The notes: generated by a model not told the origin, from the letters alone. A stretch of DNA of 64,000 bases from a virus (IMGVR_UViG_3300044846_003365:15719-79718); one strand, 5' to 3'. Shown: positions 25,204 through 57,928, counted from the stretch's first letter. Numbers and translations: made by a program.

Positions 25204-25755
25204 TTACGAAATAACTCTGTGGTCTTTACGAATTGGTTTGTAGACTTTGCTCTTGCCATTTTTAGAAGGCTTGTAGCCATAACGAGCTAGTCTGAACTGT
25301 AAAGCTGAGCTTGTCACTCCAAGGCGCAACGCTAGTCTATAAACTGGCACTCCTTCAACTCTGTTTGCGTAGTCCAATAGCTTTGTGTATTCCTCTGCCT
25401 CTTTACGATAGGTCTGAACGTTCGAGCGAACCAGCCTTGCCTTCGGCTGTAGCTCTAGCAAGCGAGCCAATGTCTCGGCACTAGGCTCAACATATACAGG
25501 CTTTACCTTTTCAATGTGGCGTGGTGGGTCTGGGATAGGTAGTGAACTAATGTTCGCACCGCTAACAGGAAAGTCAACAATCTGCCTAGCTCTTTCCCTA
25601 GTCATACCGCAAGCATTAGAAATACTTGTCAATGTCCAGCCAGCGTTCCGCAAGGCGATTATGTAATCGTTCCTCGCAGGGGTTCCTTCAATCTTTTCAA
25701 AAGCTTTTACTACCTCTGGGGGTAGCTCAACCAGTTTCTTTCTTACATTTGTCAT
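25204..25755 (-). CDS. Double-HTH DNA-binding protein
   Basis: GWTLTSISNACGMTRERARQI and GVPVYRLALRLGVTSSALQFRL. Confidence 0.7.
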   Translation of the reverse strand: MTNVRKKLVELPPEVVKAFEKIEGTPARNDYIIALRNAGWTLTSISNACGMTRERARQIVDFPVSGANISSLPIPDPPRHIEKVKPVYVEPSAETLARLLELQPKARLVRSNVQTYRKEAEEYTKLLDYANRVEGVPVYRLALRLGVTSSALQFRLARYGYKPSKNGKSKVYKPIRKDHRVIS

Positions 25756-26787: not shown

Positions 26788-27768
26788 CTAAGCTAAAACT
26801 GTTTTACCAGTCTTTCGGTATATGTTAGCTACAACTCTAGCCCAAACTTCGGGCGTTGAGTCATAAGGCTTGTAGCCACCAGCCCCACCAATCAGAACCC
26901 TGCCTTTGGCAAAGCGATTAGCTAGGTCGGCAACAACACTAGACGCACCTTCATAACCTTCGTAGGTATACTTCATACCCCAAATGTCAGACTCGTGAGC
27001 GTCAGCACCCGTAGCTAGAAGAATAACATCAGGCTCGTATTCCTCGACCTTCTGAGCAATCTCGTTGATAGCCCAAGAGAACTCAACATCTCCAGAACCT
27101 CTCGGCAAAACATAGTTATACCAATGCTTTTCTGGAAGCGAATACTCGTAAGGCTCGTCTTCAAAATACTTAGAGTCATACCAAGTGTCAGAGTGAGTAG
27201 GATACATCCTGTGTCCGTGAATACTGAAAGTAGGTATGTCCGTATCTTCTAGTAGATTCTGAACTCCATCTCCAGCGTTCACATCCCAGTCAATGTAGAC
27301 TGCCTTCAAACCATTACGCTCGAACTCCTTAGCAGCCCAAGCGAAATCGTTGAAGACGCAAAAGCCTTCACTCCATCCGTATTGAGCGTGGTGCTTCGCA
27401 CCTTGTGGATTGAACCCAACTCTGGCTTCCCCTGAGATAATCTTCTCGACTAGGCGAGCAGTCCCAGAGAACATTTGTAGAGCGGTATGCCCCATCAGCA
27501 GATTCTCTTTATGCCACTCGTATGAAACGCCTTTGTCAATTACTTCCGCAACAAACTTAGGGTCGTGGATGCTTTCCAAACTTGCTCTGTCGTAGTCAGC
27601 AACAGTAGGCTCGATAACCTCAATAGCGTCAGAACCAAGAGAGTTAGATAGCTTTTCTAGGGCGAGCTTAGCCCGTATTGGCTTAGTAATGTGCGTGCCA
27701 TCACCAGAACCAAGTTGCCAGTTTAGGTAGTCGTCGCTATACGCAACAAATAACTTTTCGTTGTTCAT
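26788..27768 (-). CDS. Histone-deacetylase/AcuC-family Zn-dependent deacylase
   Basis: GAKHHA..GFCVFND..YIDWDVNAGDG..FSIH..GADAHESD..GAGGY; start at MNNEK after GAGGAG. Confidence 0.9.
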   Translation of the reverse strand: MNNEKLFVAYSDDYLNWQLGSGDGTHITKPIRAKLALEKLSNSLGSDAIEVIEPTVADYDRASLESIHDPKFVAEVIDKGVSYEWHKENLLMGHTALQMFSGTARLVEKIISGEARVGFNPQGAKHHAQYGWSEGFCVFNDFAWAAKEFERNGLKAVYIDWDVNAGDGVQNLLEDTDIPTFSIHGHRMYPTHSDTWYDSKYFEDEPYEYSLPEKHWYNYVLPRGSGDVEFSWAINEIAQKVEEYEPDVILLATGADAHESDIWGMKYTYEGYEGASSVVADLANRFAKGRVLIGGAGGYKPYDSTPEVWARVVANIYRKTGKTVLA

Positions 27769-27864
27769 TTCTAACTCCTCTCTTTTCGTCATTATTTCTA
27801 TTCTACAACGCAAAGAAAGTTTTGTCAAGTTGCGTGATGAAACAGCTACCCTTTAGCAGGCAGT

Positions 27865-30359: not shown

Positions 30360-30995
30360 TTATTCGGTAGCTAAGATACGGGTATAAGTTATCTCCCCGT
30401 AAACAGCCCCGAACTCGGAAATTGACCTGTAAGAAGTCGTTTGACCAGGCCTACCTATATGTATCATCACATCTGGGGAAATGTAAATGCCAATATGTCC
30501 TGCTGTGTCGGCGTTATGACCAAATGCCACTAAGTCTCCACGCATAGGACTATCAACTCTTACTCCAGAGTTTTTCTGAGAGCTAGCTCCGTGATATAGT
30601 TCCACACCTAGACCTCCATAAAACCACTTCACCATGCCAGAACAGTCCCAGCCTCCCGGAGTGCTTCCGCCGAAGACATACCATGTCTTCCCTACTTGCG
30701 CTTCCAAAAGGCGAATTCGCTCTTCCATGGCTATCTTGTTTTTATAGGCATCTTCTCTGTGTTTCTTTAGAGCTACCTCAGCGATGATTCTTTGTCTCTC
30801 AGCCTCTTCTTCCTCAATCATCTGAGCGATATATTCTTCACTCATAAAGGAAGGGGAAGGCTCCATAGCTCCCATCATGTACGATGTGCTACTAATCGTT
30901 GCGTCATTGGTTTCTATTGGTTTTTCCTCCACTACAGCAGCTACTGCTCCAGTAGTGAGAGAAAGGGTGATACTTGATGATATCAACCATCTCAT
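30360..30995 (-). CDS. Secreted NlpC/P60 peptidoglycan endopeptidase
   Basis: Signal-like N-terminus, coiled coil, YVFGGSTPGGWDCSG..GDLVAF..GHIGIY. Confidence 0.85.
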   Translation of the reverse strand: MRWLISSSITLSLTTGAVAAVVEEKPIETNDATISSTSYMMGAMEPSPSFMSEEYIAQMIEEEEAERQRIIAEVALKKHREDAYKNKIAMEERIRLLEAQVGKTWYVFGGSTPGGWDCSGMVKWFYGGLGVELYHGASSQKNSGVRVDSPMRGDLVAFGHNADTAGHIGIYISPDVMIHIGRPGQTTSYRSISEFGAVYGEITYTRILATE

Positions 30996-36013: not shown

Positions 36014-36197
36014 ATGAAACACCACTTTCGAAAGTTTCAGACTTTTCAGTCTGGGTCGCTGGAGAAGTCCTTTTGACTTCTTTCCCAACTAATACAACTA
36101 TAAAGCATACCTACGACATTTGTCAAGTTCATTTGAACTTTTTTTATAACAGTTTGATAACGGAAACCCCGCCCGAAAGCGGGGCTTCCAAATCAAG

Positions 36198-36404
36198 CTA
36201 GGACACTACTTGGTAGTCCACAGTAGGCACAACAGAGCTGGCATAAACGCCTAGCTCGTAGATACCAGCGTGTCGAACTGCCAAGGACTGAGCATCCTCA
36301 CCCTGAAAAGTTTTGTTCTCGCTTGGAAAGTCGTGAACCAAAACTGTCCACACACCAGCTTCCTCGAAAACTGAAACTCGCTTGCTCGCATATGAATTGA
36401 CCAT
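36198..36404 (-). CDS. Hypothetical protein
   Basis: GAAAGGTGG RBS after a structured leader. Confidence 0.6.
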   Translation of the reverse strand: MVNSYASKRVSVFEEAGVWTVLVHDFPSENKTFQGEDAQSLAVRHAGIYELGVYASSVVPTVDYQVVS

Positions 36405-36688
36405 ATACTCGACCACCTTTCGACCACTAGGGTCTTAGAGCTGGAGAGCTTCTTGTGAAACTCGTTCCCAACTTTGCTACTCCTATATTTTACCAGCAGC
36501 CTACGACATTTTTACTATAAAACAAAAAAATATTTATAACAGTTTGATAACGGAAAAGTTTGTGATTTTAGCACGACCCACTGACATTTCTGAAACTTTT
36601 ACATAAGCCAAAGGGTCTAAGTTTTTCCACGCAGGAGGTTTCCAAAAAAAAATGCCAACCCTTTCGGGCTGGCACTCTTTTCTATTTC

Positions 36689-37339
36689 TTAGAGAACTTT
36701 GTAAAGGTTATACTCGTCAGTTTTATCCCAGTCTACATTTCCTTCTTCGTCTAGGACAGCACCAGCGTTCTTGTAATCTTCGGAAGTAATCTCTCTGTAA
36801 GTGTCGGAAAGTATTTCCCCACCTTCAATCTCAGCCCTACCAAAGAAAGCCATACCTTCTTCGGCATACTGATAAATTATTCTTACATCATAGACTTCAG
36901 AAAGTCGTCTAAAGAACTCTAAAGCTGGACTCCACGCAGTAGAAGAACCAATCCCAAGACTGAACTTTCCATTACCCAAATCTGTAATCTCGGTAATTGA
37001 AACTCCACCAAGTTGGTCTAAGTCCCACTTAGTTCCCCAGTTTCCGATATTCCAGTCATACCAGTTGTCAAAAGTTCCAGAAGAGCCTTTAGCCCACTCC
37101 AAAGTCTTTTGCTCGATAGACTTAGTTTTATCTTCTTCTACACCAATAAAGTTTGGTGTTGGGAAAAAGTTATCAAAAGAAAAGATGTTCGGCTTCTCTT
37201 CAAACTTTTCGTAGTTCATAATTTCTTTGTTCCAGTCGCTTCCAATTTTGAAAGTTCCTTCAGCACCCTTTGCCAATATTGTTTCTAGGGTTTCTTTGTC
37301 CCCAATAATATCAACATCTAAATCACACCAGTTTGGCAT
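36689..37339 (-). CDS. DUF1281/YubB-like protein
   Basis: MPNWC...WYDWNIGNWGTKWD...TAWSP...YAEEGMAFFG. Confidence 0.75.
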   Translation of the reverse strand: MPNWCDLDVDIIGDKETLETILAKGAEGTFKIGSDWNKEIMNYEKFEEKPNIFSFDNFFPTPNFIGVEEDKTKSIEQKTLEWAKGSSGTFDNWYDWNIGNWGTKWDLDQLGGVSITEITDLGNGKFSLGIGSSTAWSPALEFFRRLSEVYDVRIIYQYAEEGMAFFGRAEIEGGEILSDTYREITSEDYKNAGAVLDEEGNVDWDKTDEYNLYKVL

Positions 37340-37480
37340 ATTAGTTTCCTTCTTTCTCTGTAATTGCTATTTCGAGTTTGGTTATGTTTGCTATCGCTTG
37401 GTCAAACTCTTCCCAAGTTTCAAATGTCAAAGTAATCATTTTTTCCTTCCTCGTATTTCTATTATAGAGCTTTTTTCAAA

Positions 37481-37738
37481 TTAGTCAAGTTCATAATCAT
37501 AATCTTCGTAATTCGCTTCTTCGTAATCTCTTTTGTCTTCGGCAGTCGAGCTACGGAAATGAACCACGCCACAAAACTCGCACTCCACTTCGTAGTTGCC
37601 CCAGTCGTCAGTTGCGGAAAGATTTGCTTCATTAGTTTTTCCGCACTCTTCGTTTCCGCAAACAAACTCGTCATACGGAACTTCTACTGAATAAATACCA
37701 GACCCCATCATTGAACCTGCTGGATAATTGCTTGACAT
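37481..37738 (-). CDS. Zinc-ribbon hypothetical protein
   Basis: CxxxxC...CxxC pattern; SNYPAG N-terminus. Confidence 0.6.
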   Translation of the reverse strand: MSSNYPAGSMMGSGIYSVEVPYDEFVCGNEECGKTNEANLSATDDWGNYEVECEFCGVVHFRSSTAEDKRDYEEANYEDYDYELD

Positions 37739-37761
37739 TTTTTCCTTTCTTATTTCTTGGT

Positions 37762-37974
37762 CTACAAGTAGCAATCGCTACACTTAGGGCTTCGCTCTAA
37801 GCTCTGAATCCACTCGTGAGTTTCTTGGTTTACTGTGTATTCGCCACCACACTTGTAGCAAGTAAAGTCATATCTAACTTCACCCTTTGGGGCTACTCTG
37901 CGATTACCACGCAAAGCCAAGTCGTTTAGTTCCTGCTCGCTTAGTTCAGGATTCTCTTTTGCTAATCTACTCAT
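37762..37974 (-). CDS. Zinc-ribbon hypothetical protein
   Basis: CYKC...CSDC; GAAAGGA RBS. Confidence 0.6.
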   Translation of the reverse strand: MSRLAKENPELSEQELNDLALRGNRRVAPKGEVRYDFTCYKCGGEYTVNQETHEWIQSLERSPKCSDCYL

Positions 37975-38137
37975 TTGTTTCCTTTCGTTAGTATTCAGTA
38001 TAAAGCTACCTACTGACATTTGTCAAGTTGTTAGGTAATTCTTTTCTTCGTGTTTAGAAACTACACCCACCCACCGACATTTTTGGAATTGTCAAAGGGT
38101 AGCTCTTTTTTCACGCAGACCCCCCGAAGAAAAAGTT

Positions 38138-38239
38138 GAGCAGTTTTACAACTTGCTCAGGTTGTTATTCCTGTATACCTCACCAATAGAGGTGTTTAGG
38201 AAACTTAGGTAAGCCTTTTTACAACTTGCTCAGGTTGTT
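38138..38239 (-). repeat. Two copies of a 23-bp repeat with H-type pseudoknot potential
   Basis: TTTTACAACTTGCTCAGGTTGTT is identical at 38144-38166 and 38217-38239. Confidence 0.8.
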
Positions 38240-38468
38240 TTGTTCGCTTCAGCTTTAGAGTCTTGCGACGCAGTATTTGGGCGAACAAAGCTTTATTACT
38301 TTTCAGCTTCAATAGCTAAAGCAGTTTCCCACTTTTTGCTATCGTAAGCTTCGTCAAACCTTTTGTAATCTTCGCTTGACCAATCTTTCGTGTCAATCAG
38401 AAGAATCTTCCCGTGTCCATAGCTTTCGTCGTCAGCTATCCAAAGCGTGTTAGGTGAAAGTTCTTTTA

Positions 38469-38879
38469 TCAAATCTTCACCTCTTCCTTACGCTTTCTAC
38501 TAGCCCATCCGTCTCCAGCGAACTCCATCTCGTAGTCCCAGACCTTACCAAGAGCAACAGCGACATCCGTTGAGATGTCAGTCCAGCTCTCGCTCTCACG
38601 CCATAAGTTGCTAAGGTCAGGGTAAGTTGGTAAGTCCTCATCCGTTGAGTAGTCCCCAAGCACCAAGACTCTATCGCCTGTCCAGCGACCAGACAAGCCG
38701 TCAAACTTGTTCCAGTCTCCACCACCCCTTGCCGGTGAGGTCATAAGTAAAAGATATAACGCGTCAGACATTGAACCCTCGCAACCCGTTTGCTCGTATT
38801 GCTTAGCACCCAAGCCGAGCGGATAAGAACTAACCTGCTCTTGCTTATCAAGATTTACTAATTTGTGATACTGTCCCAT
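38469..38879 (-). CDS. Conserved phage hypothetical protein
   Basis: MGQYHKLVNLDK...GRWTGDRVLVLGDY motif. Confidence 0.7.
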   Translation of the reverse strand: MGQYHKLVNLDKQEQVSSYPLGLGAKQYEQTGCEGSMSDALYLLLMTSPARGGGDWNKFDGLSGRWTGDRVLVLGDYSTDEDLPTYPDLSNLWRESESWTDISTDVAVALGKVWDYEMEFAGDGWASRKRKEEVKI

Positions 38880-38978
38880 CTGTTTCCTTTCGTCGTTGTT
38901 TTATTGTATACCTTATCCGTCTCTTTGTCAAGTTTATTGGCAGGGGGGAGAGAGACAGGTTCTCCCCCCGCCAAGCCT

Positions 38979-40826
38979 TTAGCGGTTCTGCTTTGACAGG
39001 GCATCCGCAGCTTTCTGACCAATCAGTTCAGCTACCTTGCCCAAGCCGTCGTCAGTTGTGGCAGAAACAACTTCTGCACCGTGTTGCGCTAGCCCCTTTA
39101 CCGTGTAGTCGTCAGGGGAGAAGGTAATCCACAACACTCCAACGCCACTATCCTTACAAGCCTTTAGCCACTCCGTAGCCTTCTTGGCTTGCTCGTAGCG
39201 GTAGTGTGCATCAGACACAACAACCAACAAGCGAGCGCCGTCAGAGTGCAACAAGTTCAGCGAGCCATCCAAAGCTTGAAAGCCTTTGTCAAACTCTTCT
39301 GTCGAGTCTGGCGCTGTGTAAACATTGACGGCATTTAGGTGTTGCCCCGGCTTTAGAGTCGCAAAGACATCTTGACCAAAGTAGACCATAGCTGTCGTTG
39401 CTTGAACCCTGCGACCTGCTTCTGACAAAACCCAAGCTGTGGTAGCTAAGGGATTCATAGCAGCACCCATAGAACCAGAGATATCAACCATCACGCCAAC
39501 CTTTAGTTCAGGGTCGTCAGTATGCTTTCTAACAGTTCTTTCCCAAGCTTCGACTCTGTGGTTCAAGCCCATTGACTTGTATGCAGCGTTCTGAACCATA
39601 GCACGAGAGCGCAACCTGCCCTGCGGAACAAAGCTTCTAATCTCTGTCTGCGAGCGCTCACGATACTTAGCTTTCTCAAGTAGCTTCGCAACCTTGACAG
39701 CTGCAGCTCTCTCTTCTCCAGTTGGAGTTCTAGTCTCCCTTAGAGTCGAGTTAGTCCCATTGTTTTCTCCGGGACCAGAGCTGTTAGAGAAAACTTCTGA
39801 CGCAACATCCTTATGCTTTTTCTGTTGCTTAGAAACTTCGGCACGAGCCTTAGCTTCTTCAATAGCTTCTTCAACATCCATAGCATCAAAAGCTTCTGAC
39901 AGGTTAGAGATTTTTACAATCTCTCTAGCTTCTTCAACTGCTTCTTTCAAAGCTTCGGCAAACTGCTTTGCAGCAGAGCTACCAGTTCCATTACCAGAAC
40001 CATTAGAAGAAGAACTTGATTCAGAACCTTCGCCATCCTCTTGCTCTGAACCTTCTTCGCCCTGCTGTTTCTCTCCAGCATCCTTACTAGCCTTGTCCAC
40101 AATCTCAACCCAGCGTTTCGCTAGTGGATAAAGTTGTGTGGCATCAGCGTGGCTATCGTGAGCTTGGAACTCAAGCCACACTTCACGCAACTGGCTAAGA
40201 GTGTCCTCTCCCATTACGGAAACAATCAACTCACGAATAGGCTCAACTTCACTCTCGTCTAGAACTCCAGCATCAACACGAGCGAGAGTTAGACCAGCAG
40301 TAAACGCAGCGCCACGAACAGACGACAAGTTTTCTGCAACTGAATCCATATCACCAATCGCAAGTTCCATAGCAGAAGAGCGAAGAAAAAGTTTATTCTC
40401 TGGCATAGACTTTATTCCAAAGGATTCAATTCTTCCTTCTTCCAAAGTCTGCAAAGCTTTATACTCAACGCCACTAAGTTCGTCAAAAGCTTTCTCCAAA
40501 GAGAAACGAGAATAGCGAGCGTGCAAAGCTTCGTGGTAAATTGCACCACAAGCAACTGGATGCTCTAGCTGTCCCAATCTAGTATTCAAGTTAGAAACTA
40601 ATTCCGGGCCAATGTTAGGAAAAGCTTTGGCTGTGTTGATTTCGATTTCGGCGCTCGCAGGGTTGAACAAAGCCGGGTGGTCGTGCGAAATGCTGTCGCC
40701 CATAGTTACAACTAGGTCGCTACGAAAAGACCAATCGTTTACAAGACGACCAACGACTGCACCAATGCGCAACCAACTAGGGTCGTTCTCTTTACGAGTC
40801 TCCAAGTCCAAACTAAAGTGATTCAT
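38979..40826 (-). CDS. VWA-domain protein with HExxH motif (MoxR partner)
   Basis: HEALH; MIDAS motif DISGSM; VVSD; start MNHFS after CAGGAG. Confidence 0.85.
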   Translation of the reverse strand: MNHFSLDLETRKENDPSWLRIGAVVGRLVNDWSFRSDLVVTMGDSISHDHPALFNPASAEIEINTAKAFPNIGPELVSNLNTRLGQLEHPVACGAIYHEALHARYSRFSLEKAFDELSGVEYKALQTLEEGRIESFGIKSMPENKLFLRSSAMELAIGDMDSVAENLSSVRGAAFTAGLTLARVDAGVLDESEVEPIRELIVSVMGEDTLSQLREVWLEFQAHDSHADATQLYPLAKRWVEIVDKASKDAGEKQQGEEGSEQEDGEGSESSSSSNGSGNGTGSSAAKQFAEALKEAVEEAREIVKISNLSEAFDAMDVEEAIEEAKARAEVSKQQKKHKDVASEVFSNSSGPGENNGTNSTLRETRTPTGEERAAAVKVAKLLEKAKYRERSQTEIRSFVPQGRLRSRAMVQNAAYKSMGLNHRVEAWERTVRKHTDDPELKVGVMVDISGSMGAAMNPLATTAWVLSEAGRRVQATTAMVYFGQDVFATLKPGQHLNAVNVYTAPDSTEEFDKGFQALDGSLNLLHSDGARLLVVVSDAHYRYEQAKKATEWLKACKDSGVGVLWITFSPDDYTVKGLAQHGAEVVSATTDDGLGKVAELIGQKAADALSKQNR

Positions 40827-40964
40827 TTTTTTCTCCTGTCTCTGATTCACTAAGTAAATTGTAAAGCTTTTAGCTTCATTTGTCAAGTTCTAGGGGGTGT
40901 GTGGTGAGTGCCTAAACAACTATGAAAAAGACACCCACCCCACTTCTGCCTAATCTGGAAGGAT

Positions 40965-41996
40965 TTAGATTTTGGCAGGTCTAGCTTCTTCACCATAAAC
41001 TCTGGTAAAGACATCTGACACAACAGTTCTGTCCATCTCTGGCGCAGAAGCAATTAGATTCTCAATCGCCCACTTCGTTCCAAAAGACTCGGAAAGAGTT
41101 TTGAAAGTTAGTAGCTCTCGCATCTGCGGCGCCCAAGAGATTTCGTTAGAAGCTTGCTTCTTAGCGAGATTCTGGGCAACAGTAACTGCTGGAGTCGGAA
41201 CGCCAAGCTTACGAGCAAGAACCCAATCAGTAGTCATTTCTGCTTGGATACCAAATCGAGAAAGCAAAGCTTCTGACAAGCGAACACCCGGAGCGTTAGG
41301 GTTAGTTGCAGCAACTACATAAAAGCCTTCTTTAGCTTTTACAGTTCCACGCTCTGGATTGGCAGTAACGGCAATCTCTCGACGACCATCCATCAGACCA
41401 TACACAACTGACAAGACCTTAGGGTCAATAAGACCAATCTCGTCAATCAGTAAAGCCTTACCCTGCTCTGCAGCTTTGACCAGCGGCCCATCAATCCACT
41501 CGAATCCACCACTTGGAGTCTGAACATAGCCACCAACAAAGTCGGCAACTTCTGTATCGCCAGTTCCAAGGACAGTAAACAAGTCTGAACCAAATGCAGC
41601 TTCGACCATAGCAGTCTTACCAGTTCCCGGTGCGCCATACAGTAGAACATACTGGTTAGCTACACGAGCTTTCTTTAGGACTTCAACATCACTATGCTCT
41701 CCCCAACTGCGAGCAAAATACTTCTCGCCATTAGGTCGCTCATAAGAAGATTCGCCTTCTAGAGTTTCTGCTTCCACAATCTTTGCCTTCTTTGGAGTGG
41801 AGTTAGCATCCCTGTTTCTAAGAACAGCTTTGCCAAACTTTTCGTCGTAGTAAGACACTAGCTTAGCATCACCAACTAGAGAGTAGTTTTGAGTAACAGT
41901 ATCTCTAATTAGCTTCGCCAAGTCCAAACCTGGATTAGCAGCGTCAAGTCCATCAAGAACTTCTGTGTTTCTATTTACAATCGCAATTTCAGTCAT
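40965..41996 (-). CDS. MoxR/CbbQ-type AAA+ ATPase
   Basis: GAPGTGKT, LLIDE, ATNP, LSEALLSRF. Confidence 0.9.
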   Translation of the reverse strand: MTEIAIVNRNTEVLDGLDAANPGLDLAKLIRDTVTQNYSLVGDAKLVSYYDEKFGKAVLRNRDANSTPKKAKIVEAETLEGESSYERPNGEKYFARSWGEHSDVEVLKKARVANQYVLLYGAPGTGKTAMVEAAFGSDLFTVLGTGDTEVADFVGGYVQTPSGGFEWIDGPLVKAAEQGKALLIDEIGLIDPKVLSVVYGLMDGRREIAVTANPERGTVKAKEGFYVVAATNPNAPGVRLSEALLSRFGIQAEMTTDWVLARKLGVPTPAVTVAQNLAKKQASNEISWAPQMRELLTFKTLSESFGTKWAIENLIASAPEMDRTVVSDVFTRVYGEEARPAKI

Positions 41997-42015
41997 TTTA
42001 TCTTTCCTTCCTTGA

Positions 42016-42519
42016 CTAAGCGCTTTCAGTTTCGAATAGGGACTCTCCCCATCCAAGACCAGTTCTTGCTCTAAGAACTCGTCGAACTAGAGAGTTTGGA
42101 GTCTTGCCACTTGACAGCTCTGATATCTCTAGGTGAGAAACTTCTACCACTATTGGCTTCTTGAACAAAGTCCAACCCAATCTTGTGAAATCTCGTATTG
42201 TGTGGATGGAGTTGTAGGACAAGTTCGCAACGAAGAACTCTTTTACAGAAGTCTCTGACTTCTGAATAAGCACTCCATCAGAATCTCTTTCAATAGTTGA
42301 TTCTGGATTTGCTACATGCTCTCCCAAAGCCTTGAAGATACTCCAAGTCTTTCTAGGGTGAGAAGTAGAAATCACTCTTCGCATTACACGAGAAGCGACC
42401 AGCTTGTTATCTATCCCAATTACTGCTGGGGTAAAGATAACTTGCGAAGTATAAGAACCCTTGCGGAACTCTAGATACAGAGCTTTACCAGCAGAGTCCT
42501 TTGGACTTTTTTCACTCAT
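42016..42519 (-). CDS. Hypothetical protein, first gene of the MoxR operon
   Basis: GAAGGA RBS; TTGACA promoter upstream. Confidence 0.7.
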   Translation of the reverse strand: MSEKSPKDSAGKALYLEFRKGSYTSQVIFTPAVIGIDNKLVASRVMRRVISTSHPRKTWSIFKALGEHVANPESTIERDSDGVLIQKSETSVKEFFVANLSYNSIHTIRDFTRLGWTLFKKPIVVEVSHLEISELSSGKTPNSLVRRVLRARTGLGWGESLFETESA

Positions 42520-42595
42520 AGTTGTTTTCCTTCTTTCTGTAGATTTAGATTATTGCAGACTTTTTCTGCTTTGTCAAGTCTTTCGACTAGACTTT

Positions 42596-42889
42596 TTACT
42601 CGTCGTCGTCTTCGACTTCAACTTCGACTTTTTGTTCCTCAATCGAAAAGCCATTGTATTTTTCGATAATTCGGAAAAGTTCTTCCCAAGCATATTTGTT
42701 TAGCTCGTCTTCGTCATAAATGTAGACATCATCATCTATCCAAGTCTTGTCTGAGAGTTGGACATTTCCTACTGGTTCATAACTTATGGTGGTCTCCCAA
42801 TTAGTCTCGTCATAAAAACCAGACACTTCTAATCTGAAACCATCAAGCTCGATGCTTGCTACTGCTTTGGTCTTTGTAGTTGTTTTCAC
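42596..42889 (-). CDS. Hypothetical acidic protein
   Basis: GTG start after GAAAGGA. Confidence 0.6.
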   Translation of the reverse strand: MKTTTKTKAVASIELDGFRLEVSGFYDETNWETTISYEPVGNVQLSDKTWIDDDVYIYDEDELNKYAWEELFRIIEKYNGFSIEEQKVEVEVEDDDE

Positions 42890-43001
42890 GTTTTCCTTTC
42901 GTCGTTGTAATACTATAACATAAGCTACTGACATTTGTCAAATCGCTTTTGTTGTGCCTGCTGACACAACTTTTACATTGTGCCAGCAGCCACTGACATT
43001 C

Positions 43002-43520
43002 CTAGAAGTGGAAGTCCACTGGGACTAGGAACCAATCAAGCTCACCTTCGGCAATCTTTTTGCGAAAGTGTTCTGTGTTAGTGCTGTCGTGTTCTAGGTC
43101 GAAGAAGTAGGAATTGAAGTCCCAAGTGCCTTGCAACATATCAATCATCTTCTTCAAGGGATACAGCTCAAAGTCATACTGCATTTCCCCGGTATAGCTG
43201 TCGAGCTTTGCTTCTAGGTCAACACCTTTTTCTGCCAAGCTCTTGCGATAACCATTGAACTCATCAACACGATTTGAAATTGCTTTTGCAATCAGCTCGT
43301 TGAACTTAGCTGGGTCATCATTCCAACTAACGATGTGGTTTGGAGAACTTGCGTAAGGGTCGCCTTCAACAAATCTTCCACCACCAACTACGAACCAGTC
43401 GTACCAAGTGCCACTTGAGCTTTCAAAGTCTCCCAACCAACGCTGAAAAGTATCTTCGACGTTCCTCAGTGCTTCATCGCTGTTGTCAGCTTTTACTGCT
43501 ACATACTGCAATACATGCAT
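43002..43520 (-). CDS. Conserved phage hypothetical protein
   Basis: MH...WYDWFVVGGGRF...VPVDFHF family motif. Confidence 0.7.
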   Translation of the reverse strand: MHVLQYVAVKADNSDEALRNVEDTFQRWLGDFESSSGTWYDWFVVGGGRFVEGDPYASSPNHIVSWNDDPAKFNELIAKAISNRVDEFNGYRKSLAEKGVDLEAKLDSYTGEMQYDFELYPLKKMIDMLQGTWDFNSYFFDLEHDSTNTEHFRKKIAEGELDWFLVPVDFHF

Positions 43521-43624
43521 ATTTGTTTTTCCTTCCTGTTGCTTTTATTGTATCAATTTATTTTTCAAAAGTCAAATCTATTTTGGTGAGAGTTGGGGGA
43601 TTGCTCCCCCACTCCCGGCGCTCG

Positions 43625-44071
43625 CTAATCTATGCGAGCGTCCACCCAACATTCGAAACCCTTCGAACGCAAGTGTTGCGCCATTCGATTTGCGATGAAG
43701 CGCTTACGCTCGAAGCTCTGGCCAGCGTCAGCAAAACCATATCGCTCGAAAGTGTAAAGGCCAACGCCCTTAGCTCTGCCAAACGACCACCACTTCGAAC
43801 CTAGCTTTTCTCCCATTGGGCGCTCTTGCACTAGCCACTGGGCGAACCCACTGCGACCACTCTCAAGAACTACAGTGGCAAAACCACAAACGCCACCTTC
43901 GACAAACCAAGTTTTCTGGTTTGGGTCAACATCATTGCCAAGTGGTGTGCTTGGCGAACCAACGATGATTGGAGTTGGAGCTGGGCACTCAGCGAGTGCT
44001 TTGTGCGAAACAGCCTTCAGCTCGTTGAACAGAGCTTCGTACTGCGCACTTTTACTGCTAATTGTTTTCAT
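43625..44071 (-). CDS. Conserved phage hypothetical protein
   Basis: GVCGFA...QSFERK...RID C-terminus. Confidence 0.7.
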   Translation of the reverse strand: MKTISSKSAQYEALFNELKAVSHKALAECPAPTPIIVGSPSTPLGNDVDPNQKTWFVEGGVCGFATVVLESGRSGFAQWLVQERPMGEKLGSKWWSFGRAKGVGLYTFERYGFADAGQSFERKRFIANRMAQHLRSKGFECWVDARID

Positions 44072-44131
44072 GGGTTCCTTCCTCATAGAATTATAGTTTA
44101 CACTATTGTCTGACAAAAGTCAAATCGTGTC

Positions 44132-44440
44132 TTACTCGTTTTCATCGTCGTAGTCAGCAAACTGCTCAACAACTTGGATGTATCCATCATTTGGGTTTTC
44201 TGGAGTTGTGTGGACAGCGTTGATAAATCTCAAGCCACAAGATTCCTCATACCACTCGACAACTTTGTTTGCCATTTCCTCAGGGTCCATTTCGGCGGAA
44301 CTGATTAGTGGGTCGTAACCCCAAGAATTCATCAAGGTCATTTGTTCGTCATCCATAAGAATGTAAATCTTGTGGCAAGTGTCGAACGCAATTCCTTTGG
44401 CTTCTTTGGTGTATTCCAAAATTTCAAAAGCATCAACCAT
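44132..44440 (-). CDS. Hypothetical protein
   Basis: IAFDTCHKIY...WYEESCGLRFI; AGAAAGGA RBS. Confidence 0.65.
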   Translation of the reverse strand: MVDAFEILEYTKEAKGIAFDTCHKIYILMDDEQMTLMNSWGYDPLISSAEMDPEEMANKVVEWYEESCGLRFINAVHTTPENPNDGYIQVVEQFADYDDENE

Positions 44441-44584
44441 TTTTTGTTTCCTTTCTGTTGCTTTTATTATACAACCCCCCACTGACAAAAGTAATCCCTT
44501 TTTGGGTTATGTTATCAATTTGTTATAAATGCGAAAGGGTGCCAGTTTTTTCACGCAGGCTCAGCGTGGAGAATGTTTGACCCT

Positions 44585-44812
44585 TTAGGAGTCTGGGTTT
44601 AGAACTGGCGAAGCACAGCTAACGCAAACGACCCACTCAGAGTCGTCATCAAGAACAATTACATAAGCTTTGAAGGAAGTGTCTGAAGACGCGGTCCCTA
44701 GGGGTTCTCTACATTGAGCACAAGACTCGTCGTCGTAAGTGTCAAGTCCGGCAAGGTTGGCTAGTCTCTCATCGCTGGTGTTAGATATGACGTGCATTTC
44801 AATGTGGCGCAT
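44585..44812 (-). CDS. Zinc-finger hypothetical protein
   Basis: CAQC...CVSC; TATGAT 6 nt before the ATG suggests leaderless. Confidence 0.55.
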   Translation of the reverse strand: MRHIEMHVISNTSDERLANLAGLDTYDDESCAQCREPLGTASSDTSFKAYVIVLDDDSEWVVCVSCASPVLNPDS

Positions 44813-44858
44813 GGTTTTATCATAGAGCACCATCCGTTAGGTTATTTTGAGGAAGACC

Positions 44859-45251
44859 TCAGTACCAACCAATCCACTTGATGTGGTCCCAAGCTCCACA
44901 CGCTTTATCGGAGTACCGATGCACCATGTACTTCCACGTATCGCGTACCTGCAAGTATGGCTTGCCGTTATGGCGGGCCTTCGAGCTCGCTAACTGTCCC
45001 AAGCCGTAGTAGATACCGTTCTGAGCTTTGTGGTTCCAGCGGGACTCGTAATGAATAACTTTGGCAAAGCAGTCCCACTGGCGAGCCGCTCCCTTGCCCG
45101 TTACTGGATGTCCGCCGTTAGCTAGGACGTACGTCTTCGCATAAGCTTTTATCTGGTCGACGGAGGGGGACTTGGGCTCAGCGCTCGCCGTTGGTACGAA
45201 GAGCGTCAACGTCAGTACTGCTACAGTCACTGCAATGGCTAGCCGTCTCAC
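44859..45251 (-). CDS. Secreted lytic-transglycosylase-like protein
   Basis: Signal peptide; QWDC..VIHYESRWN..AQN..YGLGQ..YMVHRY..CGAW..GWY. Confidence 0.8.
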   Translation of the reverse strand: MRRLAIAVTVAVLTLTLFVPTASAEPKSPSVDQIKAYAKTYVLANGGHPVTGKGAARQWDCFAKVIHYESRWNHKAQNGIYYGLGQLASSKARHNGKPYLQVRDTWKYMVHRYSDKACGAWDHIKWIGWY

Positions 45252-45530
45252 TTAAGCGAGCTCGCTAACCCGCTTGCCGTTAACTCCAAGAACATCTAGA
45301 TTGATGCCCAGTGATTTAAAAATTTCAATTGCGGTCTCACGTGGCGTGCCGTTCTCGTTGAACTGAGCAAAGAGACCGTCGACCTCGTCTTTACAAATTG
45401 GGTGCCAAGGTCCTAGGTCGTCATACCACCTCAGGTCATCCGACGGTCCAGCATTAGGAGAGCTTTCATTACCACATGCGCTACAGATTCGCTCGCCATC
45501 TCTCAGGCTCTTGATTACTTTTGATTGCAT
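45252..45530 (-). CDS. Hypothetical protein
   Basis: GAAAGGA RBS; TTGACA promoter. Confidence 0.55.
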   Translation of the reverse strand: MQSKVIKSLRDGERICSACGNESSPNAGPSDDLRWYDDLGPWHPICKDEVDGLFAQFNENGTPRETAIEIFKSLGINLDVLGVNGKRVSELA

Positions 45531-45628
45531 AATTGTCCTTTCGTTTTAATTCACTTTAAACCTTCAGCAGGTTTTTGTCAAGTCTATTTTCGTTGAGGCG
45601 GAAGGGCCCGTGGGCAACTTTAACATAA

Positions 45629-45725
45629 GAAAATCCCCCTCGGCCAGACGAATAGCTGAGGGGGAAATTCCCATGAACAACATAACTAACTAACTAAAGA
45701 AGCCACTGAGCAGGCACCCAGTAAC
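45629..45725 (-). ncRNA. Candidate small RNA A
   Basis: TGTCAG-N10-TAAAAT promoter, no ORF with RBS, ends in a GC hairpin plus U-run. Confidence 0.45.
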
Positions 45726-45761
45726 AAGATAATTTTATCAGGACCCACTGACATTCGCAAG

Positions 45762-46526
45762 TCAAACTTTGACTTTAAAGATTCCCGTTTCTTTTGACAA
45801 ACGCTGAAGACTGTTGAAATCAGGGACCCCGTCAGCTGGAACATAACCGATGCTCCGTTGGAACTTAGCATAAGCACTACGAGTCTTACCGTCGAAGTGT
45901 CCTCGCGGAAGTCGACGTACACCCGTCACTACAGAAAGCGCAAGCTGTACAAGCTGGACGTTTGGGTGCTTCATGTTTGGCTTCACTTGTGCAGGTACGA
46001 TTTCGGGCACCGTTGATGTATTTAGCTCCTCACCATGGCGGGCCGTTAAGTTAAAGTTAGGACGCGCAAACCCTATTGTGTCAAGAGAACTGCGCACCCG
46101 TTTATACACCCCATCATTTAATGCACTCCCCCTTGGCAGGCCGTGACTTACTTGCGCTTCTATAGTAGAGAAAATACCATCCGTTGAGTAGGAGGAGACG
46201 TCCGTCACTATTCCAACATGTGGCGGGCCGAAGTCCGTTACTGTAGACGTCTCAAAGAAAACAATGTCACCCGTCTTCGGAGTCTGGAAGAAGCGTCCGT
46301 TACTTAAGTAACTGCTTAATGCTTGCGGGGTATATACAAACGCGGGTAGTGGCAGGCCGACTTCGCGAGCGCAAACGTCGATGAAGGCACCGTCCCATGG
46401 CAGGCCTTTGCCACTGTAACCGACGGTCTCACCAAAGATGTTAGTCCCGTCCGCACGGGAGGTGTAACCTAAGTAATTCTCGGCGCTCGCCAGAAACTTA
46501 TTTCTGAGCTCTGTCTTCGTTGTCAT
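45762..46526 (-). CDS. CHAP-like plus peptidoglycan-binding protein (WDGAF where WC is expected)
   Basis: AENYLGY..WDGAFID..PKTGDIVFF..HVGIV..TIEAQ; C-terminal GHFDGKTRSAYAKFQ..DGVPD. Confidence 0.7.
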   Translation of the reverse strand: MTTKTELRNKFLASAENYLGYTSRADGTNIFGETVGYSGKGLPWDGAFIDVCAREVGLPLPAFVYTPQALSSYLSNGRFFQTPKTGDIVFFETSTVTDFGPPHVGIVTDVSSYSTDGIFSTIEAQVSHGLPRGSALNDGVYKRVRSSLDTIGFARPNFNLTARHGEELNTSTVPEIVPAQVKPNMKHPNVQLVQLALSVVTGVRRLPRGHFDGKTRSAYAKFQRSIGYVPADGVPDFNSLQRLSKETGIFKVKV

Positions 46527-48066: not shown

Positions 48067-48336
48067 TTATAAGGGTTTTAGGTCTTGCTTAATCTTTCTT
48101 AAAACTGATTCTGAATAGGTATTAATTCCGCCCCTAAACAAGGCTGGCATCTTCCCCTTTTGGTTGTTGCTTCGCTTCCACTTCTTCATAAAAGCTTTAA
48201 CTTTGAGAGCATGGGCAACCTCAACTTGGCCGTCTTCTGTCATCTCTAAAAACTTAATCCGTCGCCACGAATACAGGGTGTGAGGGGACATCCCAATGGC
48301 GTGGGCCACTTCTTTGATAGTGCCTTTTTCAATCAA
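48067..48336 (-). CDS. MerR-like HTH protein
   Basis: TIKEVAHAIGMSPHTLYSW. Confidence 0.6.
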   Translation of the reverse strand: MIEKGTIKEVAHAIGMSPHTLYSWRRIKFLEMTEDGQVEVAHALKVKAFMKKWKRSNNQKGKMPALFRGGINTYSESVLRKIKQDLKPL

Positions 48337-48967
48337 CTACTTCCAACACCTCCCGCTTGGGGTATGGCTGTGGTTTATATCTAAGCTTGGTGTTGAGGTC
48401 ACGGCGGCGCCATTTGTTGTTGGTATTGAAGTAAATGTATCTGTGCTTGCGGGGCCTCTCGTGGCGTTCGAGTCGCTCCCCAAAATACGCCTTTGCTCCA
48501 TTAACTCCTCCATGCTCATCGAATAAGTGTCGTGAGTGACTTGCTGATTTTCCATCTAATCTCCATTCCACGTGTCTGTCTGACATCCCTGTATAAATCC
48601 AATTGGTCGCTTGGTAGACAACCCCAATGTGCCCTGCCCCAATTTCGGCATAGCTCACGATGATGTCTTTATCCTTAGGTAACAACTTCAGGCTTCGGCC
48701 AATCAAGAATGACTCTGTGTTTTTGGGTGTCCCATCTTTAATCCAAAGACGAGTCAGCTCCAAAACCTTAGAGGATTCTTCTGGCCCACAGACTCCAACA
48801 CATAAAGCATTGGAGGCTGGCTTTCCATAAATTACACAACCAATCATTTCCTCATCATCGAAAAGACCATAGGCGAACATAGTCGACGCCCGTCGATGTA
48901 GGTAGTGATTCTCGACAACCATCTTGGTAGCAGACTTGCTGTCGATTTGTTTTATTGTATAATCCAT
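48329..48967 (-). CDS. Mom-family DNA modification protein (GNAT fold)
   Basis: NHYLH..ELTRLW..NTESFLI..VSYAE..GHIGVVYQATNWIYTG. Confidence 0.85.
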   Translation of the reverse strand: MDYTIKQIDSKSATKMVVENHYLHRRASTMFAYGLFDDEEMIGCVIYGKPASNALCVGVCGPEESSKVLELTRLWIKDGTPKNTESFLIGRSLKLLPKDKDIIVSYAEIGAGHIGVVYQATNWIYTGMSDRHVEWRLDGKSASHSRHLFDEHGGVNGAKAYFGERLERHERPRKHRYIYFNTNNKWRRRDLNTKLRYKPQPYPKREVLEVVD

Positions 48968-54640: not shown

Positions 54641-55870
54641 ATGGCAAAAGCACAATTCCCGATTGATGGGAAACAAGGAAAAGCTTGGAAGATAACAAGT
54701 CCATATGGATGGCGCGTGCATCCCATAGAGAAAATCAAAAAGCATCATAATGGCGATGATATCTGGGGACCTGCAGCAAAGATTTATTGCGAAGCTTGGC
54801 ATGATGGAACAGTTGTTTACGCTGGAACCTCAAAGCTAAAAAACGCTGATGGCTCGCTTGGTGGCGTAGGTTACTACGTAGACCTAAGAAGCAAAGTTAA
54901 TGGTAAGTGGTATGTAGCACGCTATGGTCACATGGTTGAAGGTAGCCTAAAGGTCACTACTGGCCAGAAGGTAGAAGCAGGAACCATTCTTGGAATCATG
55001 GGAAACACTGGAGCTAGCGCAGGACGCCACCTACACTTTGAGATTGTCGAAGGCAAGAAGCACGTTTGGGACCTAAAGGGTAAGGGCTTTGTTAGCCCTA
55101 TCGCTTTTGTTAAGTCTGTAATTGAGCAGGAAAAGCTAGTTGCTCAAGGCAAGGTTGAAACTCCAGAAACAGCTCCTGTTACTGAGACTCCAGTCAATCA
55201 CGAAGAGGTTGGAGCCAAGCTTATGGAAGAAGAGAAAGCAAAACCAGCTCCAGTAGCTAAACCAGCCGTTACTGCAAAAGCTCCTGTAAAGAAAGCAGGC
55301 GCTATAGAGCCACACCCAATCATTGCAAAGCATGGTCTAACTCTTGGAACCGTTGACGCAGTAATGGCATTGGCTAAGCACTTTGTTGACAAGAAGTATG
55401 TTGAAGGACCAAAGAAAGACACCATCTTTGGAAAGTTCATGGGACTTAACTACGCACCTTGGTGTGCGTCTTTTGTTTCCTATGTCTTTCAAAAGTCAGG
55501 TGCAGGATACATTGTTAGAAACGCACAGACCCCTAAAGGTTTTGTAGGTTGTACAGCAGGCATCAATGGTCTAAAAAAGAAAGGCTTCAAGACTGTAAAA
55601 GTTACTGAAGCTTTACCAGGCGACATCATCTTCTTTGACTGGGAGCGCAACAATGACCCAGACCACGTAGGACTTGTTCTTAAGACCAACCCTAAGAAGA
55701 AAACAATTACTTGCTATGAAGGAAACACCACCAACGGAATGGGCGGTTCTCAGTCAAACGGTGGCGGTTGCTTCAAGCGTGACCGTCGCTACGACCAAGT
55801 ATTTGTTGTAATTCGCCCTGAGTTTAAAGCTCCAAAGGTTGCACCAGTTGATGCAACTCCTACTAACTAA
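54641..55870 (+). CDS. Endolysin, M23 peptidase plus CHAP
   Basis: HNGDD..HLHFE (M23); PWCASFVS..PGDIIFF..HVGLV..EGN (CHAP). Confidence 0.9.
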   Translation: MAKAQFPIDGKQGKAWKITSPYGWRVHPIEKIKKHHNGDDIWGPAAKIYCEAWHDGTVVYAGTSKLKNADGSLGGVGYYVDLRSKVNGKWYVARYGHMVEGSLKVTTGQKVEAGTILGIMGNTGASAGRHLHFEIVEGKKHVWDLKGKGFVSPIAFVKSVIEQEKLVAQGKVETPETAPVTETPVNHEEVGAKLMEEEKAKPAPVAKPAVTAKAPVKKAGAIEPHPIIAKHGLTLGTVDAVMALAKHFVDKKYVEGPKKDTIFGKFMGLNYAPWCASFVSYVFQKSGAGYIVRNAQTPKGFVGCTAGINGLKKKGFKTVKVTEALPGDIIFFDWERNNDPDHVGLVLKTNPKKKTITCYEGNTTNGMGGSQSNGGGCFKRDRRYDQVFVVIRPEFKAPKVAPVDATPTN

Positions 55871-56361: not shown

Positions 56362-57036
56362 ATGTCAACATGGATTAGACCAGTAGATGGCGGCTCAATT
56401 TCTGACAGCTTCCAAGGACACGCAAATAGAACAAACCCACCCTCAAGAAACCCTGGAACAGATTACGCAGTACCAGCTGGAACACCTATCAAAGCAATCG
56501 CAGACGGAACCATTACTGGAATCGTCCCTACTTTTGCAGGGGCTGGTGGAAGAATGATTTACCAAAGCTTCGCATCAGGCCACAACGCCGATTACCTTCA
56601 TCTTTCACGTATTGACGTAGTTGCTGGTCAGCAAGTCAAGCAGGGTCAGATTATTGGACTAGTTGGTGGCTCAGGTTTCGGCAAAGAAAACGGCTATGGC
56701 GCACACCTTCACCTCTCATTCCGCGTAGGTGGTAAGCCAACAATGGCTGCTGGAAACCTTGACTACGAAGCTTTCCGTGGAGCACCTACAAGTGCTACAC
56801 CTGCAAAGCCAAGTGTTGCACCAGCTAAAGCTGGAACAAGAGCATACCCCGGAAGGTTCCTGAAACAAGGAGAGCCTGCCAGTGCAGATGTACTTTACTT
56901 ACAAAACAAGCTAGGAGTTAACCCTCCAGGTCCATTCGGCCCTAAGACTCACGCAGCTGTTGTTGCCTTTCAAGCTTCGAAAGGTCTTACCGCAGATGGA
57001 GTTGTTGGCCCTAAGACTTGGGCAGCACTGGGTTAA
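56362..57036 (+). CDS. M23 peptidase plus peptidoglycan-binding domain
   Basis: PGTDY..YLHL..HLHLS; FGPKTHAAVVAFQ..DGVVGPKTW. Confidence 0.85.
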   Translation: MSTWIRPVDGGSISDSFQGHANRTNPPSRNPGTDYAVPAGTPIKAIADGTITGIVPTFAGAGGRMIYQSFASGHNADYLHLSRIDVVAGQQVKQGQIIGLVGGSGFGKENGYGAHLHLSFRVGGKPTMAAGNLDYEAFRGAPTSATPAKPSVAPAKAGTRAYPGRFLKQGEPASADVLYLQNKLGVNPPGPFGPKTHAAVVAFQASKGLTADGVVGPKTWAALG

Positions 57037-57163: not shown

Positions 57164-57928
57164 ATGACGTGGTATCCAAAAGTATCAGGAGTACAAGACA
57201 ACGGATTTGGTGGCTCTCGTAATGGTCAGCCAATCAATGGAGTAGTAATACACCACGTTGCAGGTACTAATGGATTATCTTATGTAGCTAACGCTAACAC
57301 TAGAGATTCACACCCTACGTACCACATCGCCAGAAGTGGGGCTGTGACTGGAATTGTTAATCCCAGTCGTAGACCCCACTCAACTGGTGGAGCCCCAGAC
57401 CCAAACGCTGTGTCGTTTGAAATAGATAACTCATCTGTTGGTGGAGATTGGCCTATCTCACCTGAATCACTCGAAGCTTTGATTGACGTGATTGTTTATC
57501 ACGCAAGTCAGTCGCCTAGAGCTGGTAAGGGATTTGCTAGAAATCAACCATCCGTTACACAGTCAGAGTTCTTTATTGCTTGGCACTCACAATACAAATC
57601 AACTGCTTGTCCTGGACCATTCATCATGTCCAAGCTTGATTACATAGTTGCTGAGTGTAACAAAAGAGCGTCTGGTGTTGCACCTTCCACACCAACCCCA
57701 ATTCCAACTCCAACTCAAGTATTTGGAACATCAAAGCCAAAACTATCTGGTTCTTTAAAAAGAGGCTCAACTGGAAACTTAGTTAAGTATCTTCAGTCAG
57801 TACTTAAGTTAAAAACTGATGGTCAGTTTGGTCCAATTACTGATAAAGCAGTTAGAGCTTTTCAAGCAAGAAACGGCTTAAAAGTTGATGGAATAGTCGG
57901 CCCAATAACTTGGGGAAGACTTCCGTAA
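57164..57928 (+). CDS. N-acetylmuramoyl-L-alanine amidase plus peptidoglycan-binding domain
   Basis: VVIHH..SFEI..WH..STACPG; DGIVGPITW. Confidence 0.85.
   Translation: MTWYPKVSGVQDNGFGGSRNGQPINGVVIHHVAGTNGLSYVANANTRDSHPTYHIARSGAVTGIVNPSRRPHSTGGAPDPNAVSFEIDNSSVGGDWPISPESLEALIDVIVYHASQSPRAGKGFARNQPSVTQSEFFIAWHSQYKSTACPGPFIMSKLDYIVAECNKRASGVAPSTPTPIPTPTQVFGTSKPKLSGSLKRGSTGNLVKYLQSVLKLKTDGQFGPITDKAVRAFQARNGLKVDGIVGPITWGRLP

Follow-up and report, generated by a model that had tools for sequence, protein, structure and literature searches.

RecA-NDp promoters of Actinobacteria were reportedly described by Gamulin in 2004. Here we analyse sites of the same build, TGTC(A/G)G followed after 10 nucleotides (nt) by TAnnnT, in a 64,000-nt stretch of viral DNA (IMGVR_UViG_3300044846_003365:15719-79718; 'the window' is this whole stretch), which we read as promoters that phages have probably co-opted from the host regulator PafBC. 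As master activator of the response of Actinobacteria to DNA damage, PafBC acts by an unusual 'sigma adaptation' at PafBC/RecA-NDp promoters (Muller 2018; Muller et al. 2021, PMC8635444; Schilling 2025, PMC11804915). In the published motif, tGTCgg(N10)tA(N3)T, the 3' part is the SigA −10 and the 5' part a −26 element at −28 to −23; these promoters have no −35, their GTC is invariant, and the consensus comes from chromatin immunoprecipitation and cryo-electron microscopy (PMC8635444). PafB residues R46 and R50 contact the GTC triplet, while PafC contacts SigA region 4 (PMC8635444). PafBC is switched on by single-stranded DNA (ssDNA; PMC11804915). The initial annotation of the window had equated TGTCRG-N10-TAnnnT with this architecture, and the published description agrees (PMC8635444).

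The window sites resemble PafBC/RecA-NDp promoters in their TGTC(A/G)G core with its invariant GTC, in the 10 nt that separate it from a SigA TAnnnT, in a gtg(g) extension, in the lack of a −35 at most sites and in the occurrence of the same element at recA of candidate hosts. They differ in lying on a lytic-type genome, before small phage genes rather than repair genes, and in carrying an A-tract before TGTCAG, in some cases an added TTGACA, and no LexA box. As in the middle promoters of phage T4, where a MotA box at −30 is combined with a σ70 −10, an upstream element replaces the −35 and the housekeeping −10 is kept, and the class stands beside canonical early promoters in a large phage. Unlike in T4, no MotA or AsiA homologue was found in the phage DNA searched; the element matches the site of a host activator, and the adaptor would come from the host. 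Coliphage 186 tum and CTXphi rstA are LexA-controlled phage genes, and there too phage transcription is tied to the host damage response through the host regulator's own site. That control is by repression, mostly in temperate phages, and triggers induction, whereas an activator-type element is proposed here, with no LexA boxes found in the contig and relatives scanned and no integrase in the 9 genomes checked.

WYL-domain regulators such as CapW, BrxR, DdaA and DriD tie DNA damage or ssDNA to phage defence (PMC11662680, PMC9122601, PMC12392091). The likeness is that a factor with a WYL domain senses ssDNA when infection or damage occurs; the difference is that there the host turns on defence, whereas here the phage would exploit the signal. 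The searchable literature yielded work on WYL defence regulation and on PafBC itself, and in it phage promoters with a PafBC element are not described. LexA is a known example of a host damage regulator used by phages, and T4 of an adaptor that takes the place of the −35; large-scale phage use of a host sigma adaptor would be new.

A second class of predicted promoters in the window

The IMG/VR virus contig is 79.7 kb long, has a GC content of ~45% and contains the window as bases 15719-79718; nearly all genes of the window lie on the minus strand. Nine minus-strand sites with the 10-nt spacer had been reported initially, each by the low end of its hexamer, and all nine are present at those places. 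Together with one further site (60139-60118) they form a class of ten, here called class II, which is given below with one canonical (class I) promoter.

60118 to 60139, minus strand: class II promoter TGTCAGTAGtgagtgcTAGGTT; outside the range first annotated, in the gap between stop 60205 and ATG 60068
45732 to 45753, minus strand: class II promoter TGTCAGTGGgtcctgaTAAAAT (hexamer 45753-45748); no −35 box; extended −10 (TGa)
44466 to 44487, minus strand: class II promoter TGTCAGTGGggggttgTATAAT (hexamer 44487-44482); no −35 box
44095 to 44123, minus strand: class I promoter TTGACT-N17-TAAACT (first annotated as 44110, N9); TGTCAG in the spacer at N9
42977 to 42998, minus strand: class II promoter TGTCAGTGGctgctggCACAAT (hexamer 42998-42993), upstream member of a tandem pair; no −35 box
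42912 to 42941, minus strand: hybrid promoter TTGACAaaTGTCAGTAGcttatgtTATAGT (hexamer 42933-42928), heading operon 42889-38296
38058 to 38079, minus strand: class II promoter TGTCGGTGGgtgggtgTAGTTT (hexamer 38079-38074), upstream member of a tandem pair; −35 box absent at 16-19 nt
37997 to 38026, minus strand: hybrid promoter TTGACAaaTGTCAGTAGgtagcttTATACT (hexamer 38018-38013); ATG 37974 lies 22 nt past the −10
36565 to 36586, minus strand: class II promoter TGTCAGTGGgtcgtgcTAAAAT (hexamer 36586-36581), upstream member of a tandem pair; TTCAGA at the −35 position
36487 to 36508, minus strand: class II variant TGTCGTAGGctgctggTAAAAT (hexamer 36508-36503); 82-nt leader to ATG 36404 (68 amino acids, aa)
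36097 to 36126, minus strand: hybrid promoter TTGACAaaTGTCGTAGGtatgcttTATAGT (hexamer 36118-36113); 83-nt leader to ATG 36013 (97 aa)

The tandem pairs described at the outset (36586/36508, 38079/38018 and 42998/42933) were recovered, as were the TTGACA/T boxes at 36118, 38018, 42933 and 44115. The N9 site at 44110 was dropped from the class: it is a canonical TTGACT-N17-TAAACT promoter, in which the TGTCAG is probably incidental.

TGTCRK-N10-YAnnnT occurs 19 times in the window against 3.5 expected, a count of at least 19 being reached in 0 of 100 shuffles, and the tighter TGTCRKWRG-N7-YAnnnT occurs 12 times against 0.25 expected. On the minus strand of the whole contig, strict sites number 8 at N10, and none of the other spacings from N4 to N17 has more than 2. 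The minus-strand family in the window has the consensus aaTGTC(A/G)G(T)(G/A)G-N7-TAnnnT, and the GTC triplet of the −26 element tGTC(g/a)g is present in all ten sites. Every class II site is intergenic, in keeping with the placement first given, and lies 22-83 nt upstream of a start codon with a GAAAGG-type Shine-Dalgarno sequence, except for the one at 45753, which precedes a ~100-nt hairpin-terminated RNA. Enrichment of the hexamer in intergenic DNA is uninformative as a measure, because the crude open reading frame (ORF) calls run over promoters. About 20 canonical TTGAC(A/T)-N17-TAnnnT promoters lie on the same strand beside these sites, which argues for two promoter classes in the phage; by count, spacing and position, the ten sites read as real phage promoters of the second class. 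The actinobacterial SOS box TCGAAC-N4-GTTCGA, at up to 1 mismatch, was not found in the contig or in six motif-bearing genomes (G403-G405, G408, G410 and G412).

The source phage and recurrence of the element in its relatives

For capsid and portal, the closest match (70-73% aa identity) is DSL-LC01, a metagenome-assembled Actinomycetia phage, followed by Microbacterium phages (Pumpernickel), Arthrobacter phages (Atuin) and records of Mycobacterium and Gordonia phages, several hundred in number. A search of sequencing runs found DNA near-identical to the contig in metagenomes that several studies had made of lake water. Complete relatives with terminal repeats measure 132-154 kb, and all of them, motif-bearing or motif-free, carry WhiB genes, as does the second lineage described below; these genes and the capsid and portal matches bear out the actinobacterial setting that had been proposed. 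By these comparisons the contig belongs to a lake-water actinophage, kin of DSL-LC01, Pumpernickel and the cluster C myoviruses. Given this kinship, the lake habitat, and complete relatives of that size with WhiB and without an integrase, the window probably comes from a large, lytic freshwater actinophage. Megablast of the gene block against cultured phages gave zero matches, and a tRNA scan of the window gave zero tRNAs.

To follow the element among relatives we used 80 IMG/VR loci around MoxR ATPase homologues (1.41 Mb; the first lineage). TGTCRG-N10-TAnnnT occurs there 187 times on the coding strand and 13 times on the other, against 12 for a reversed control pattern, and the spacing peaks at N10 (187, with 8 at N9 and 2 at N11). 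Over 160 related phage loci, coding-strand sites at N10 number 187 and 494, compared with at most 26 at N6-9 and N11-14; five complete relatives carry 11, 8, 7, 5 and 2. In the window the motif is enriched over shuffles, and in the contig and its relatives N10 is enriched over other spacings, as the initial reading of the motif would have it.

The promoter before the MoxR operon was aligned in seven phages. TGTCAG and TAnnnT are invariant and the 10-nt spacer between them is free; in these orthologous promoters the −35 to −10 distance is 17 or 18 nt, while that from TGTCAG to the −10 is fixed at 10. An invariant pair at fixed distance around a free spacer indicates an element read together with the −10, and the alignment thus carries the apparent footprint of a promoter element rather than of a free-standing operator.

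A second lake-phage lineage with the same element

An exact scan of IMG/VR for TGTCAGTGG-N7-TAnAAT returned at least 120 stretches. Among the matches listed, most are contigs of 35-42% GC with up to 16 general sites per 13 kb, all on one strand. Complete genomes of this second lineage (112-117 kb) carry 10-19 sites within a 10-15 kb block of small genes, and in the genome inspected (G412) most block sites are followed by a short AACGAAAGG-type leader and an ATG. From 333 unique sites not matching the search pattern the consensus is AAATGTCAGT(C/G)(C/G)-N4-TGnTAnAAT, without any −35.

No capsid, portal or terminase common to the second lineage and the window phage was detected; the second-lineage portal is closest to Streptomyces Stanwilliamsviridae phages, which themselves have zero such sites. 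With none of these proteins found in common, the element appears to occur in two separate lake actinophage lineages, at hundreds of sites.

The same element in candidate hosts

Of 401 actinobacterial genomes sampled at class level, we took 20 small ones (1.3-1.5 Mb, low-GC Actinomycetia), none of them flagged as unpublished, which appear acI/Nanopelagicales-like and are treated here as candidate hosts; sampled regions of five of them (G096, G141, G218, G377 and G234) have 44-50% GC. Upstream of recA, all 20 genomes have exactly one cTTGTCAGTGGC-N6-TAnnnT, summarized as TTGTCAGTGGC-N6-TAnnnT. The typical site reads cTTGTCAGTGGC(g/t)CCTGCTACCTT followed by TCGAACAG; that of Mycolicibacterium reads cTTGTCGGTGGCTGCCTCTAGCGT. 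The extended motif TGTCAGTGG is common to the window sites and to recA and other damage genes of the candidate hosts. Identity can extend further: the window site at 42998 and the recA promoter of candidate host G218 have the same first 14 nt, and site 25079 of the second-lineage genome G412 matches the G141 recA promoter at 20 of 22 positions.

All five genomes tested have pafB and pafC side by side with tatC after them, and the candidate-host PafB keeps the helix RMFERDKDDLR, that is, the R-x3-R-x-K-x3-R pattern of DNA-contacting residues. Further host sites precede carD, a DUF6504 gene, a LysM gene, a PD-(D/E)XK nuclease gene beside pafBC, and the gene for DNA polymerase III alpha. Full LexA boxes accompany the sites at the DUF6504 and LysM genes, and several of the host transcripts are apparently leaderless. 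With sites at recA, carD, the LexA-boxed genes, the nuclease and polymerase III alpha, the element evidently marks a DNA-damage regulon in plausible hosts.

A separate observation concerns where host sites cluster. Eight of nine strict TGTCRGTG-N8-TAnnnT sites of G141 fall in an island of ~50 kb (G141:C1 439-490 kb; L155-L157), with comparable clusters in G096, G218 and G234. The island sites drive, often without a leader, genes for hypothetical proteins, trypsin-like peptidases, tetratricopeptide repeat (TPR) proteins, a C5 DNA methylase and an OGG-like protein; two island proteins have homologues of 35-54% identity in related phage contigs. The island may be a PafBC-wired variable or defence island.

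Site density raises another reading of the phage sites. With 10 sites in 80 kb, and as many as 17 within 12 kb, they are more than 10 times denser than the ~9 strict sites per 1.4 Mb of host genome. They might serve mainly as decoys that, once the phage genome replicates, titrate PafBC away from host damage or defence promoters, a role in line with this density and with the clustering of host sites in a methylase, TPR and peptidase island that is possibly defensive. Each phage site, however, has a correctly spaced −10 and faces a gene on the coding strand, none of which a pure decoy needs. In a variant of this alternative, TGACA-N1-2-TGTCA would be the palindromic operator of a dimeric repressor. 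Three window sites do read TTGACAAATGTCAG, an imperfect palindrome; nevertheless only a minority of sites have the second half-site, its distance is 1 nt in some and 2 nt in others, and it is missing from the low-GC lineage. We rejected the operator reading of TTGACAAATGTCAG on these grounds, and consider decoy or operator, taken together, very improbable.

Search for a phage-encoded reader

The initial annotation had raised the prospect of a WYL protein encoded elsewhere in the phage genome. A search of the contig and of five complete relatives for the WYL domain (PF13280) found none. Host PafB and PafC profiles, full-length or restricted to the winged helix-turn-helix (wHTH) at the N-terminus, gave a best E value of 0.9 over ORFs of at least 40 aa from the contig and 160 phage loci (~2.3 Mb), and MotCF (PF09158) and AsiA (PF09010) were absent at E ≤ 1 from the contig and 8 complete motif-bearing genomes.

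We also compared the proteomes of six complete motif-rich genomes with those of three motif-free ones (G413, G414 and DSL-LC01). The sole candidate was a very acidic protein of 56-81 aa with the signature GW..CxTHDG..DPC, which had zero Pfam or PHROG matches. It was set aside as a correlate of the motif, because the window contig and G406 (5 sites) lack it, whereas motif-poor G407 and L043 have it. Its family (F.xW..G...GW....C.THDG.P....E..E...GDPC; L279:6117-6287, L300:9902-10147 and homologues) is common to both lineages, and in the low-GC lineage the gene lies directly 3' of a thioredoxin gene. ACGGC(A/G)AGC arrays, with at least 7 copies in 260 nt, stand upstream of the GW gene in relatives (G403 ~69640-69900, G404 and G405) and may be iteron-like elements or a regulator array; window positions 44960-45280 hold 3 copies only, which is borderline against chance.

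Other candidates fared no better. P0001 (34976-35275) seemed linked to motif clusters of the second lineage and fails to track the motif in the first. A 183-aa ORF beside terL (25204-25755, minus strand) has a weak match to σ70 region 4; it is also present in motif-free G414, and a sigma factor of the extracytoplasmic function (ECF) type would not read TGnTAnAAT. The ORF may encode a sigma factor with which the phage transcribes its late genes. WhiB was discarded because motif-free relatives have it too. Among the proteins compared, we thus found none that appears to track the motif consistently.

Several observations nonetheless weigh against PafBC as the reader. The core host damage genes read TTGTCAG, not the AAA that precedes TGTCAG in the phage sites (66-80% A at −1, a conserved A-tract), and this difference could point to another reader. 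The motif is patchy: DSL-LC01, G413 and G414 have zero such sites though they are close relatives, and it is absent from cultured soil relatives of both lineages, though their hosts also have PafBC. The GW protein was present in 6/6 motif-rich genomes compared, and in G409 and G411, against 0/3 motif-free ones. BLASTP and hidden Markov model searches such as those above can miss a fast-evolving small phage activator. Within the window, where 7/10 sites lack a −35, the other 3/10 carry TTGACA without mismatch at 18 nt from the −10, 6/10 have an extended −10 (TGn), and the first lineage overall shows a weak TTGACA consensus; SigA alone may suffice at sites bearing TTGACA or TGn, and some could fire that way. 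The search of sequencing runs for the phage DNA matched zero RNA runs.

Some of these points would suit a phage activator or sigma adaptor (MotA/AsiA-like), made from class I promoters and reading AAATGTCAG at −31 to −23, in which case the likeness to PafBC sites would be convergence or mimicry. Two promoter classes are found as in the early and middle genes of T4, the element sits at the position of the MotA box, the AAA upstream is unlike the core host damage genes, and the motif and the GW protein are distributed as just described. Set against this are the failure to find MotA, AsiA, WYL or PafB/PafC-like proteins in the phage DNA searched, the inconsistent occurrence of the GW protein, whose acidity makes it an unlikely DNA binder, and the failure of P0001 to follow the motif. 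A phage activator would also need a coincidental match in the hexamer, in its TGTCAGTGG extension and in the exact spacing, in two lineages sharing almost no proteins. We regard it as unlikely.

Alternatively, these could be plain SigA promoters, with an extended −10, a −35 or both, in which TGTCAG is a readerless feature of the spacer or was spread by cassette duplication and exchange among lake phages. Besides the TGn and TTGACA counts in the window, this would fit the TG at −15/−14, conserved at 63-80% in the low-GC lineage, the promoter-leader cassettes visibly duplicated in the window, and the small genes exchanged between the two lineages at 58-69% identity. However, more than 450 distinct sites keep TGTCAG and the exact 10 nt while spacer and flanks vary freely, which argues that the element itself is under selection. 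Promoters of the TGTTATAAT type are enough for motif-free relatives, and duplication does not explain identity to host recA promoters. This explanation has, in our view, little chance of being right.

Proposed mechanism and its bearing

Motif core, N10 spacing, position, the near-identity of some sites to host recA promoters, the presence of pafBC in the candidate hosts and the failure to find a phage reader in the DNA searched lead us to favour, with some confidence, host PafBC 'sigma adaptation' promoters co-opted by phages as the explanation for the class II sites. In such a scheme, ssDNA arising from injection, replication, recombination, host DNA breakdown or external DNA damage would bind the WYL domains of the host heterodimer PafBC and switch it on. 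The PafB wHTH would then dock on the GTC of the −26 element and the PafC wHTH on SigA region 4, so that host RNA polymerase with SigA would start at the class II phage promoters. Expression of the block, with its small genes, MoxR-VWA operon and short terminated RNA, would rise with ssDNA. The phage sites being free of LexA boxes, activation would come without SOS repression, and sites with TTGACA or an extended −10 would probably keep a basal SigA activity.

A broader and more tentative proposal, to which we give slightly less than an even chance, is that two unrelated lineages of abundant lake actinophages independently rebuilt most promoters of an early or middle block as PafBC promoters and made the host's ssDNA alarm their own switch; hosts would drive a variable island (methylase, TPR, peptidase) from the same element, leaving PafBC contested in an arms race.

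If the promoters do depend on PafBC, a phage would for the first time be seen to borrow the sigma adaptor of its host rather than bring its own, as T4 does, and phage gene timing would be tied to ssDNA. Reports of a PafBC effect on phage resistance would then have a simple explanation, the −26 element could be dissected with hundreds of naturally occurring promoter variants, and a sequence signature would help to assign uncultured phages to hosts among the Actinobacteria; there would also be a bearing on the ecology of freshwater bacteria, some of which are among the most abundant.

Individual sites and neighbouring features

The class II promoter at 45753 is followed by the predicted RNA mentioned above:

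45610 to 45725, minus strand: predicted short transcript ('sRNA A') from the 45753 promoter; minimum free energy −47.4 kcal/mol, z −4.6

In the predicted RNA a 5' hairpin is followed by a single-stranded stretch rich in U and A, and this by a GC-rich terminator hairpin and its U-run. We found no coding ORF in it that has a Shine-Dalgarno sequence, and a scan of the whole window, this RNA included, matched zero Rfam families at the gathering threshold. At the 44487 promoter, ATG 44440 lies 25 nt past the −10 and opens a 102-aa ORF with the Shine-Dalgarno sequence GAAAGGAAA.

The operon at 42889-38296 encodes products of 97 aa and 167 aa, a MoxR AAA ATPase, a VWA-like protein of 635 aa, and products of 136 aa and 58 aa. 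Between the tandem promoters 42998 and 42933, a hairpin at 42951-42970 holds a third TGTCAG (gttgTGTCAGcaggcacaac). Downstream of the hybrid promoter at 38018 come two small ORFs rich in Cys, with a DUF1281_C protein (36689-37339) after them; upstream of the 38079/38018 pair lies a 33-nt direct repeat (38134-38166 and 38207-38239, 88% identical, minus strand AACAACCTGAGCAAGTTGTAAAA...). The 97-aa product starting at ATG 36013 has a weak match to a RecE-like C-terminal PHROG.

An exact 24-nt repeat (36143-36166 and 36533-36556, minus strand TTTCCGTTATCAAACTGTTATAAA), which contains GTTAT-N6-GTTAT, lies ~25 nt upstream of 36118 and 36508. The leaders of ~82 nt that follow these two sites are alike (AGTTGGGAA..CTCCAGC..CGAAAGTGGT), and repeat and leaders could represent a duplicated promoter-leader cassette or a regulator site.

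Elsewhere in the window, auxiliary genes encode a Mom-like DNA modification protein (48329-48967), an HDAC-family deacetylase (26788-27828), a dual-specificity phosphatase (23250-23756), a thioredoxin (59472-59792) and a cobalamin adenosyltransferase (62004-62600). The adenosyltransferase failed as a pointer to the host, its best genome matches being Mycobacterium at 57%. The lysin complement is unusually large, with at least 5 separate cell-wall hydrolase genes: a CHAP and peptidoglycan-binding protein (45762-46526), a peptidase (M23-like by PHROG matches) joined to an endolysin domain in one protein (54641-55870), a peptidase with a peptidoglycan-binding-type C-terminus (56362-57036), an endolysin with a peptidoglycan-binding-type C-terminus (57164-57928) and an NlpC/P60 protein (30360-30995).

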